From contig OZ244217.1 of the NCBI GenBank assembly GCA_965216935.1, positions 3,597,565 to 3,661,564 on the forward strand: 64,000 nucleotides of DNA, given 5' to 3'. Made by a program: the position numbers and the translations under genes. The DNA is from Acidobacteriota bacterium (lineage in GTDB: Bacteria > Acidobacteriota > UBA890). Below, piece after piece: positions 21,206 through 23,538 of the stretch. How positions within the stretch are numbered: the stretch's first letter is position 1; every line of letters begins with the position of its first letter. The notes beneath the pieces were generated by a model. The model had not been told where the DNA came from, made no database searches, and saw nothing but the letters and a program-made list of their open reading frames with translations.

Positions 21206-22378
21206 CTAGGCCGCTTCCTCCGCTCGCCGCCTCCCCTGCCCGGCCGTGTCCGGCAAGATCCGTCCGAACACCTCCACCGCGCGCTCCATCTCGTCCATCG
21301 TCCCGAGCGAGATGCGCATCCATTCGTCCTGATACGGCGGAAAGTCGCGTCCGACCAGGACATTGTGCTCCGCGCAGGCATCGCGGAACGCGGCGGCGGG
21401 CATGCCGGTGTTCACGAAAAGAAAATTGGTCTGCGCATCGGTTGCGGCGTACCCCCGCGCGGCGAACCACTTCGTCGTGAACTCCTTCACCGCGGTGTTG
21501 CGGGCGGCTTCCCGCTCGATGCGGCCCGGGTCCTCGATCGAGGCCTTCGCGCCAAGCAGCGCCGGTGCGTTGAGCGTTCCGCCGTAGTGCCAGCCACGGA
21601 TCTTCTGGATAACGTCCGGCTTGGCGACCAGCCAGCCCATCCGCATACCCGCCATGCCGTGCGCCTTGGAGAACGTGCGCGAAACGATGACGCGCTCGTT
21701 CTCGAGGGCCAGCGGAATCTGCGTCTCGTTTCCCGGGTCGGTGACGTAGTCATAGTACGCCTCGTCGACCAGGATCATCGCGTCGGTCTCGGTCAGCACA
21801 CGATCGAGGAACCCGCCCACGGCGTCGGCGCGATGGAGCGTAGCGGTCGGGTTGTTCGGGTTGCAGAAGAAGACGATCCCGGCCCCCTTCGCGGCGTCGG
21901 CCATGGCGTCGAGGTCGATCTTCAGATCGGCATCGAGCGGCACCGACTCGACCGGGTGACCGACGATCGCGGCATACTCCGGCATGGTTTCGAACGACGG
22001 CGACGCGGTCACCAGGTGCCGGGTCGGCGAGGTGAACACGTGCGTCAGTGAGCGCAGCAGCTGCGTTGATCCGTTGCCCAGCATGATGTGGTCGCCGGGG
22101 ATGCCTTGGGTATCGGCAATCGCCTGGATCGTCTGGCGCGAGGGCAACCCGTAGAGGCTGCCGTAGCCGCCGCTCATGGCCTCGTCCATCGCCCGGGTGA
22201 CGACGTCACCGGGGCCGAGCGGGTTCTCGTTGTTGTGCAGCAACAGCGGCCGCTCCTGGACGGGCAGTGTCATCGACAGGGCGCGTGCGATCGAGCGCGG
22301 CCCGTCGAACGACATGATGGCTGCGGCTGTCGTGCCGATGCCCAATCCCTTCAGCGCACTTCTTCGCGTAACGCTCAT
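21206..22378 (-). CDS. HisC-family (class II) PLP aminotransferase with canonical twin-arginine signal peptide
   Basis: HisC motifs NNENPLGP, FFCNPNNPT and SRTFSKAHGMAGMRMGW (PLP lysine). N-terminus MSVTRRSALKGLGIGTTAAAIMSF is a Tat signal. Confidence 0.8.
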   Translation of the reverse strand: MSVTRRSALKGLGIGTTAAAIMSFDGPRSIARALSMTLPVQERPLLLHNNENPLGPGDVVTRAMDEAMSGGYGSLYGLPSRQTIQAIADTQGIPGDHIMLGNGSTQLLRSLTHVFTSPTRHLVTASPSFETMPEYAAIVGHPVESVPLDADLKIDLDAMADAAKGAGIVFFCNPNNPTATLHRADAVGGFLDRVLTETDAMILVDEAYYDYVTDPGNETQIPLALENERVIVSRTFSKAHGMAGMRMGWLVAKPDVIQKIRGWHYGGTLNAPALLGAKASIEDPGRIEREAARNTAVKEFTTKWFAARGYAATDAQTNFLFVNTGMPAAAFRDACAEHNVLVGRDFPPYQDEWMRISLGTMDEMERAVEVFGRILPDTAGQGRRRAEEAA

Positions 22379-23538
22379 GCCAGCACCTGCTCGAAGACGC
22401 CGCATGCACGCTCCATCTCGTCGAGCGTCCCGATACTGATGCGGGCGTGGGTTTGTTCCATGGGCGGAAAGTTGCGCCCGACGCCGACACCGTGCTCGCG
22501 GCACGCGGCGCGGAACTCCGCCGCGGGACGGCCGATGTTGACGAAGATGAAGTTCGTCTCGGAGGGCAGCACCTCGTAGCCGAGGTTGTCGAAGAAGTCC
22601 ATCGTGTAGCTGCGCGCCTCGGTGTTGCGCGCCTTCTCCTGTGCCTCGCGGGCGCCATCCTGCAGCGCCGCGTAGGCACCGGCGAGCGTCGGCACGGCGA
22701 TGTTCACGCCGAGGGCCAACGACTGCAGCTTCTCGATCGTGCGACCGGAGCCGATGCCGTACCCAACCCGCATGCCGGCCATACCGAAGCATTTCGAAAA
22801 GGTTCGCGAGACGAAGACGTTCTCGTGCTCGATCGCGATTCCCGCAGCCGACTCGTAGTCGGGATGGGTGACGTACTCGTGGTAGGCCTCGTCGACGTGG
22901 ATGACGGTGTCCGGCGTCGTCCGCCGCAGCGTCTCGGCAAACTCTCCTATGGCGGCGCCGCTGTGGACGGTGCCCGTCGGGTTGTTCGGGTTGCACACGA
23001 ACACCAGGCCGGCGCCGCGGGCGGCATCGGCCATGGCGCCGAGATCGAGCATGCCGTCGCCGGTGATGGGGATTCGTCGCACCTCGGCACCGAGATACTC
23101 GGCCACCCTGCCCGTCTGCGAGTACGTCGGGCTCGCGGTCACCAGGTGCCGCCCCGGACCGCTAAACCCTTGCGCCCCGGTCTTGAGGATCTCGCCCGAA
23201 CCGGCGCCGAGAACGATGTTCTCCGCCGCACAGCCGTTCCGGCGAGCCAGGGCCGCGGTGAGGTCGGCCATGCTCGGCTGAACGTTCATCGGATACCGGC
23301 CGGCGCCGGCGAAACCGTCGTGGATGGCGTCCATCGAGGCCGGAAACGGCCCCAGGGGGTTCTCGTTGCTGGTCAGACGGATCTCGCCATTCTGCGGTGG
23401 CGGGATCAGGCCGGACTCGCCGCCTCCCGGACCCAGCTCGGCGACCAGCGCCTCGCGCCCACGAGCCGAGATGAGCTGCCTCAGGTTGGCGCTCGATCGG
23501 GGCTCACGAGCAAACAGTGCTCTGCGGGAGAGCGACAT
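22375..23538 (-). CDS. HisC-family (class II) PLP aminotransferase paralog with degenerate RR motif (MSLSRRALFA) and no hydrophobic h-region
   Basis: HisC motifs SNENPLGP, VCNPNNPTG and SRTFSKCFGMAGMRVGY. It overlaps the downstream paralog by 4 nt. Confidence 0.8.
   Translation of the reverse strand: MSLSRRALFAREPRSSANLRQLISARGREALVAELGPGGGESGLIPPPQNGEIRLTSNENPLGPFPASMDAIHDGFAGAGRYPMNVQPSMADLTAALARRNGCAAENIVLGAGSGEILKTGAQGFSGPGRHLVTASPTYSQTGRVAEYLGAEVRRIPITGDGMLDLGAMADAARGAGLVFVCNPNNPTGTVHSGAAIGEFAETLRRTTPDTVIHVDEAYHEYVTHPDYESAAGIAIEHENVFVSRTFSKCFGMAGMRVGYGIGSGRTIEKLQSLALGVNIAVPTLAGAYAALQDGAREAQEKARNTEARSYTMDFFDNLGYEVLPSETNFIFVNIGRPAAEFRAACREHGVGVGRNFPPMEQTHARISIGTLDEMERACGVFEQVLA

Follow-up and report, generated by a model that had tools for sequence, protein, structure and literature searches.

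To our knowledge, periplasmic transamination is known from one characterised enzyme, PtaA. This pyridoxal 5'-phosphate (PLP) transaminase of Pseudomonas is exported in the folded state, with PLP bound, through twin-arginine translocation (Tat) and is active in the periplasm, and its authors noted homologues in non-pyoverdine species (PMC6206403). Here we report on a 64,000-nucleotide stretch of an Acidobacteriota bacterium of the UBA890 lineage (positions 3,597,565 to 3,661,564 of the forward strand of contig OZ244217.1, assembly GCA_965216935.1; referred to as the window) and, within it, on two adjacent paralogous genes, A and B, whose products are predicted to be enzymes of this kind. Protein B carries a canonical Tat signal, while protein A retains the twin arginine (RR) and the c-region of such a signal around a degenerate hydrophobic core. 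While enzymes of B's kind were already known, what is new here is the conserved A/B pair with its selectively maintained half-signal; no earlier description of an A-then-B pair was found in the literature consulted.

PtaA (model NF051461; Ringel, Draeger and Brueser 2017, reviewed in PMC6206403) is, like A and B, a PLP transaminase of the HisC family and, like B, has an N-terminal Tat signal. It is, however, encoded by a single gene and acts on the glutamate side chain of pyoverdine, whereas the window holds a conserved gene pair with one signal degenerate. Indeed, A and B score 229.3 and 234.6 bits with the PtaA model (E 1e-68 to 1e-70), far under its equivalog cut-off of 500, and no pyoverdine or non-ribosomal peptide synthetase genes were seen among the window's open reading frames covered by Pfam scans. 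The best model for both proteins among the NCBIfam profiles is PRK09105 (NF006580; A 272.6 bits, B 261.0 bits), yet these scores also fall below its subfamily cut-off of 444, and PRK09105 has no established function and no described paired arrangement. On B, the alignments of both the PRK09105 and the PtaA profile start at residues 2-3 (profile positions 3-5), so that these models take in the signal region. Canonical HisC (TIGR01141; Escherichia coli HisC, PDB 1FG3/1GEW) shares its fold and PLP-binding residues with A and B, but is a cytoplasmic enzyme without a signal, and E. coli hisC lies inside the his operon; B, in contrast, has a Tat signal and no his neighbours. Asp85 of E. coli HisC is replaced by G in window A and by T in window B.

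The Tat system exports folded oligomers. In the documented cases of hitchhiking (hydrogenase-2 HybO/HybC; PaoABC, PMC4273604), a pre-assembled oligomer is exported on the signal of one subunit, and signal-less partners travel with the signal-bearing one (PMC4273604, PMC10924467), as we propose below for A and B. These passengers are unrelated, signal-less subunits, whereas A, which would be co-exported, is the paralogue of its carrier and has a conserved RR and c-region. A second parallel is the remnant peptide of NarG, which resembles the N-terminus of A in being Tat-derived, having lost export competence and being retained under selection (Ize et al. 2009; PMC10609526). The NarG remnant binds the chaperone NarJ and the enzyme is cytoplasmic, while in the window no comparable chaperone is evident and the partner of A is predicted to be exported. 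Finally, the structure of TatBC with a signal peptide shows TatC bound by the RR motif together with the Phe that comes after it, and the hydrophobic h-region packed against lipids within the complex (PMC13323110).

Organisation of the A-B locus

Both genes lie on the minus strand. Gene A (22375..23538), the upstream member and representative of the A subfamily, encodes a HisC-fold PLP aminotransferase of 387 residues; gene B (21206..22378), representing the B subfamily, encodes one of 390 residues. The stop codon of A and the start codon of B share an ATGA overlap (22375..22378), which points to translational coupling of the two genes. The product of A begins MSLSRRALFAREPRS and its start is preceded by an AGGAGG Shine-Dalgarno sequence, and that of B begins MSVTRRSALKGLGIGTTAAAIMSF. 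The two proteins are 44% identical over 340 residues. Gene A encodes the motifs SNENPLGP, CNPNNPTG and SRTFSK249CFGMAGMRVGY, and gene B the corresponding NNENPLGP, CNPNNPTA and SRTFSK238AHGMAGMRMGW; hence the two reading frames and every motif named in a preliminary description, which had been made from the letters of the window, are present in the DNA. The Schiff-base lysine of the SRTFSK motif is Lys249 in A (22792..22794), which aligns to K214 of E. coli HisC, and Lys238 in B (21665..21667), and each is invariant in all 117 homologues of its own subfamily.

Family identity of A and B

Profile searches place A and B in the aminotransferase family PF00155 (157.7 bits, E 6e-46, and 133.3 bits, E 2e-38, respectively). 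With the hisC equivalog model TIGR01141, A scores 234.5 bits (E 1e-69) and B 194.8 bits (E 2e-57), both below the cut-off of 276.55, and identity to E. coli HisC is 27% for A and 23% for B. Furthermore, a tblastn search with the proteins of the E. coli his operon gave no match for hisG, D, B, H, A, F or I in the 64 kb window, in agreement with the preliminary description, which had seen no other his genes there and had doubted a role in histidine biosynthesis. That doubt is borne out by the scores, the low identity and the lack of his context.

The nearest solved structure is 3LY1, a Pectobacterium protein from structural genomics listed as a 'putative histidinol-phosphate aminotransferase' (E 1e-37 by sequence; TM 0.79/0.88 by fold). 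AlphaFold models of A and B reach a mean pLDDT of 87.7 and 83.4, with a confident catalytic core of the HisC-type fold. Confidence is low at the N-termini, over approximately 50 residues in A and 35 in B, which is what signal-like extensions would lead one to expect.

The positions that form the PLP site (aligned to E. coli N157, D184, Y187, T211, S213, K214, R222 and R335) show no variation among 117 homologues of A or among 117 of B, so that both enzymes are probably active. On the same grounds we rejected the idea that one paralogue is a catalytically dead pseudo-enzyme. A subfamily-specific site does occur near the substrate pocket, where D85-E86 of E. coli corresponds to G/S-E in A and to T-Q in B.

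The family tree that the preliminary description had called for was built by neighbour-joining from Kimura distances, without bootstrap. It places non-Tat sequences (E. coli, Streptomyces, Acidimicrobiia and Bacillota) at the base and gathers the Tat-bearing sequences, Pseudomonas PtaA among them, in a single clade apart from non-Tat HisC. A and B are sister groups nested in this clade, and their neighbours are single-copy Tat aminotransferases of Gemmatimonadaceae and Vicinamibacterales. By these sequence comparisons A and B are assigned, as paralogues, to the PLP transaminases of the PtaA/PRK09105 type, a family of Tat-exported periplasmic enzymes; they have the HisC fold and are not histidinol-phosphate aminotransferases. 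For B taken by itself, we regard a periplasmic transaminase distinct from HisC as highly likely. Several sources annotate homologues as 'histidinol-phosphate aminotransferase', a label that is very probably wrong for such genes.

The Tat signal of B and its distribution in the wider family

The signal peptide of B, residues 1-33 (MSVTRRSALKGLGIGTTAAAIMSFDGPRSIARA; 22280..22378), has its RR at 22361-22366 and ends in a putative AxA site. It scores 19.6 bits with the TIGR01409 TAT_signal model, above the cut-off of 16.7, and the RR is followed by an uncharged run of 14 residues with a maximum 12-residue hydropathy of 1.46. An RR ahead of the NENP motif together with a core rich in G, A and T occurs in 116 of the 120 best B homologues, usually as S/T-RR-x-F-V/M-K. 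B homologues likewise show a median uncharged run of 14 residues after the RR, and their maximal 12-residue hydropathy has a median of 1.62. The cleavage position would be the ARA at residues 31-33. An A-x-A tripeptide lies 10-38 residues past the RR in 113 of 117 B homologues, but in about 70 of those 113 the first match falls within the alanine-rich core (AAAIM and similar), so that this count by itself is no confirmation of the ARA site. By motif, uncharged h-region, AxA and TIGR01409 score, B is a predicted Tat substrate; the model score and the conservation both bear out the textbook signal attributed to the downstream copy in the preliminary description.

Such signals are common among the relatives of the pair. 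A crude Tat test was passed by 64 of 88 family members taken from genome loci, and of 68 single-copy relatives, 66 proved on stricter re-analysis to have a canonical h-region. The recovered sequences of the other two contain no RR; of these, L021 at least is truncated by the start of its locus. The relatives among the matches listed come from Bacteroidota, Proteobacteria, Planctomycetota, Acidobacteriota and Gemmatimonadota. The proteins thus form a widespread, barely studied family that is predicted to be exported to the periplasm, and the preliminary description overstated the case in calling a Tat-exported aminotransferase unusual, given the PtaA precedent (PMC6206403), the NCBIfam models NF051461 and NF006580 and the 64 Tat-positive members.

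The half-signal of A

Residues 1-25 of A (MSLSRRALFAREPRSSANLRQLISA; 23464..23538) form a degenerate Tat-type N-terminus with the RR at 23521-23526. TIGR01409 gives no match on this N-terminus, and A falls outside the Tat substrates by our assessment: the RR is present and conserved, while an uncharged hydrophobic h-region is missing. The segment between the RR and the ARGREA motif reads AREPRSSANLRQ. After the RR, the longest uncharged run is six residues, and four charged residues (three Arg and one Glu) occur within 19. The maximum hydropathy of the h-region is 0.67, and -0.19 over a narrower span. The preliminary description had given A no hydrophobic core. The core is indeed degenerate, yet A is not signal-less, since the conserved SRR and c-region are kept.

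The conservation of these two elements is strict. Across 55 diverse A homologues, which are 51-84% identical to window A, S4, R6, A25, G27 and E29 are invariant, and M1, R5, R26, R28 and A30 are conserved in at least 90%. ARGREA (A residues 25-30; 23449..23466), a putative c-region and cleavage site of the form xxA|RGREA, is near-invariant, occurring in 107 of 113 A homologues, with a spacing from RR to RGRE of 19-20 residues in 104 of the 113. Position -1 is Ala in every one of the 113, and position -3 is I, V, L or M. This conservation of ARGREA exceeds the needs of a cleavage site. The codons beneath MSLSRRALF differ synonymously among loci, which shows that selection acts on the protein. 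ARGREA is not restricted to the A family: early-branching B-type sequences and some single-copy relatives have it too, there following a canonical h-region (L004-L007, L015).

The segment between these elements varies with lineage, being near-canonical in A homologues of Vicinamibacteria (hydropathy up to 1.9) and polar or charged in the lineage of the window; the median hydropathy is 0.87 for the A family against 1.62 for B. A maximum 12-residue hydropathy below 1.0 was found at seven of eight A loci, as against none of 66 single-copy relatives and none of seven B loci (Fisher p 2e-9, a value inflated by phylogenetic non-independence). Decay of the h-region is, in the sequences compared, confined to the paralogue that is always partnered by B. 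There is also a weak trend, in small numbers, for the four pairs with an ATGA overlap to have the more degenerate A signals and for three of the four gapped pairs to have more hydrophobic ones.

Conservation of the gene pair

Scanning genome contigs for the patterns DEAY[HY]DYV and NPNNPT returned, among the matches listed, mostly distant single-copy relatives, together with at least five new paired loci (L002-L006). The A-then-B order is now seen in the window and in at least 11 further pairs (two in L001, and those of L002-L006, L083, L084, L086, L087 and L088; L082 and L085 are duplicate copies of L083 and L084, respectively). Intergenic distances in eight measured pairs are -4, -4, -4, -4, 2, 11, 26 and 29 nt, and the 4-nt overlap of the window recurs in the first pair of L001, in L083 and in L088. 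L001 contains two tandem pairs, A1-B1-A2-B2, followed by a cytochrome c gene. The source genome itself possesses, beyond the window on the same 5,870,592-bp contig, a second A-type/B-type pair (P0219 and P0041). Its members share 56% and 62% identity with window A and B, and the A protein of this second pair is less degenerate, with an uncharged but weak h-region. Judged from these loci, the A-B pair is conserved across Gemmatimonadota and Acidobacteriota.

Contigs L004 and L016, from metagenome-assembled genomes and labelled 'uncultured Bifidobacteriaceae', also carry Tat-type aminotransferases. Since the A/B pair of L004 clusters among Acidobacteriota sequences, the contig may well be mis-binned or mislabelled.

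Proposed export and assembly of A and B

Enzymes of the HisC-type fold are obligate dimers. With this dimeric fold, the translational coupling and the constant adjacency of the genes, export as an A/B heterodimer is the most likely route for A, and we lean slightly towards a reading of A and B as a periplasmic transaminase pair in which A is exported bound to B as a pre-folded heterodimer. B would fold and bind PLP in the cytoplasm, would be targeted by its own cleavable twin-arginine signal and would work in the periplasm. A would stem from the same Tat-exported ancestor, with the SRR n-region, a spacing of 19-20 residues and the A|RGREA c-region all retained but the hydrophobicity of the h-region lost. 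It would leave the cytoplasm within the pre-folded heterodimer, where the signal of B would supply the h-region function and the RR of A may still contact TatC or a cytoplasmic quality-control or proofreading factor; such continued engagement of the n-region would explain why the RR has been retained. In the periplasm, the pair would act as a transaminase on amino acids or amines, and the Sec-exported DUF1028 protein, whose gene lies upstream of A, would probably work beside it. Taken as a separate claim, co-export of A with B is put forward tentatively, at somewhat below an even chance.

Several points weigh against this reading. Both proteins keep complete active sites, and each could therefore form its own homodimer. 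A fully dispensable signal on A should have lost its RR, and as the RR is kept, pure hitchhiking is an incomplete account. The distant A homologues of Vicinamibacteria have near-canonical h-regions, and there A may be exported alone. The linkage to the DUF1028 gene is lineage-restricted. Moreover, the Tat assessment was made with the TIGR01409 hidden Markov model and hydropathy heuristics rather than with TatP or SignalP, and the tree, as noted above, is an unbootstrapped one.

The alternative that survives best, although we consider it unlikely, is that A is a cytoplasmic enzyme with a NarG-like remnant of a Tat signal and that only B is periplasmic. The SRR...ARGREA segment would then bind a chaperone or regulate activity, and the two enzymes would work on opposite sides of the membrane. 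The four charges in 19 residues of the h-region, its hydropathy of at most 0.67 and the missing TIGR01409 match all fit this view, and cases are documented in which non-exported enzymes keep a remnant Tat peptide that serves to bind a chaperone (PMC10609526, citing Ize et al. 2009). The near-canonical signals of the distant A homologues, however, argue that the ancestral A was exported, and a signal-like geometry (the 19-20-residue spacing and the Ala at -1) has been maintained. Furthermore, no candidate chaperone gene is conserved beside the pair in the loci examined, and the tight translational coupling of A to an exported paralogue would be left unexplained.

Tat h-regions are generally less hydrophobic than those of Sec signals. 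It is conceivable, if quite improbable, that Tat exports A without the help of B, as a homodimer with an unusually polar signal, A and B being independent periplasmic transaminases for different substrates. The conserved RR motif, spacing and c-region would be accounted for, as would the difference between A and B near the active site (G/S-E and T-Q at E. coli D85-E86), but an h-region that packs against lipids (PMC13323110) is poorly suited to three Arg and one Glu, and the only paralogue to show the degeneracy is the one that is never without a B partner.

It is hardly credible, finally, that both genes encode ordinary histidinol-phosphate aminotransferases of histidine biosynthesis with RR motifs arisen by chance: the HisC-family fold and motifs, the TIGR01141 E-values (1e-69 and 2e-57) and the labels given to homologues in several sources speak for it, yet both proteins score under the TIGR01141 cut-off, share only 23-27% identity with E. 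coli HisC, lie in a window without his genes, cluster with PtaA and belong to a group whose Tat signal is kept in hundreds of homologues from many phyla.

Genomic neighbourhood and possible function

The gene upstream of A (23669..24748), on the same strand and 130 nt away, encodes an exported DUF1028 protein (PF06267, 218.6 bits; PDB 2IMH, E 2.5e-17), whose orthologues carry Sec-type signals. The DUF1028 neighbour reported in the preliminary description is thus confirmed and is, in addition, predicted to be exported. Its C-terminus resembles PG_binding_1 weakly, at 16.9 bits against a cut-off of 23. The order DUF1028-A-B is kept in relatives at 73-83% identity, namely L082/L083 and, with a cupin gene inserted, L088, where the surroundings encode peptidases, an amidase and an asparaginase; overall, the linkage is seen only in close relatives and at one distant locus, L020. 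A search of the literature on DUF1028 found nothing useful. Transamination of cell-wall precursors, which the preliminary description had also entertained, rests on the sub-threshold PG_binding_1 match and on this lineage-restricted linkage, and is not sustained. Its broader suggestion of periplasmic amino-acid transamination in place of histidine biosynthesis is broadly supported by the conserved Tat signal of B and by the finding that neither copy is HisC.

Downstream of B, a gene on the same strand for a secreted LRR/FN3/repeat protein (18837..21185) probably starts 20 nt past the B stop codon. It is possibly co-transcribed with B, and it is not found downstream of B in L083 or L088. The gaps between the DUF1028, A, B and LRR/FN3 genes gave no match to a sigma-70-type promoter or an intrinsic terminator in our scan; G+C across the window is 63-71%. 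Several copies of a repeat of about 38-40 residues, roughly Y(V/I)LDxxGGVHAGGGAPxxxPxTPYFGFDxARDLE, occupy the C-terminal half of the LRR/FN3 protein and recur in an adjacent secreted protein of 221 residues (17500-18165, minus strand), with no Pfam coverage of the repeat in either protein. The genes for these two proteins flank a type II secretion pseudopilin-like gene (18262-18738).

Divergent from the DUF1028-A-B cluster is a gene for a Tricorn-like protease with PD40, Tricorn PDZ and S41 domains (25196-28612, plus strand). The combination recurs at L020 (7035-14019), a distant Acidobacteriota locus, where genes for a Tricorn-like protease and for DUF1028 lie close to that of a single Tat aminotransferase, as in the window. 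The Tricorn protease and the LRR protein were considered as conserved operon partners of the pair and rejected, as they are not conserved beside it as an operon. A trio of genes for a GFO/IDH/MocA oxidoreductase, a GMC oxidoreductase and a glyoxalase-family protein is also present near the pair, both in the window (28807-31900, plus strand) and in L088 (14603-17164). Further off in the window is a gene for a HipA-family toxin kinase (HipA_C and Couple_hipA; 4348-5628, plus strand).

Redox genes recur beside the pair elsewhere. In loci of Acidobacteriota and Vicinamibacteria, A and B are contiguous and on the same strand with a c-type cytochrome gene (PF13442), in what look like operons: L084 (6802-11772), L086 (3991-10372), L087 (3187-10378) and L001 (6264-11804). 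A pyrroloquinoline quinone dehydrogenase gene (PF01011) is near the pair in L084, L086, L087 and L005, but not in L001, and an FAA-hydrolase or amidohydrolase gene is near it in L084, L086 and L087. L005 differs in that its cytochrome and dehydrogenase are encoded on the other strand, at a distance of about 4 kb from the pair. Genes for an IorAB-like molybdenum oxidoreductase (a large and a 2Fe-2S-type small subunit) adjoin single-copy Tat aminotransferases in three loci of different phyla (L033, 810-4909; L024, 9779-14000; L077, 58-3572), and the window has a homologue at 8113-10861 (minus strand), 11 kb from the pair. These recurring periplasmic dehydrogenase neighbours suggest, as a lead rather than a result, that the transaminases may supply keto acids or aldehydes, as carbonyl products, for oxidation in the periplasm.

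Significance

The locus appears to belong to a large family of periplasmic transaminases in abundant soil phyla, whose very probable mislabelling as HisC could distort reconstructions of histidine biosynthesis in metagenome-assembled genomes. For the Tat pathway, the A/B pair offers a clean natural test case, the paralogues differing mainly in the integrity of the hydrophobic core. One may go further and suppose, as a possible if rather doubtful extension, that A and B are the subunits of an obligate heterodimeric periplasmic transaminase, both of which originally bore Tat signals and one of which now bears a 'half signal' (RR and c-region, no hydrophobic core), and that the wider family serves a periplasmic route of amine or amino-acid oxidation in Acidobacteriota and Gemmatimonadota. 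The neighbours in question are, for the pair in several lineages, a pyrroloquinoline quinone dehydrogenase plus cytochrome c and, for single-copy relatives, molybdenum-dependent enzymes of an aldehyde-oxidase-like kind. If this were true, the half signal would represent a natural intermediate toward hitchhiker export, and it would follow that, in a complex that carries two signals, selection can go on maintaining a TatC-binding n-region once the lipid-facing h-region is no longer needed.

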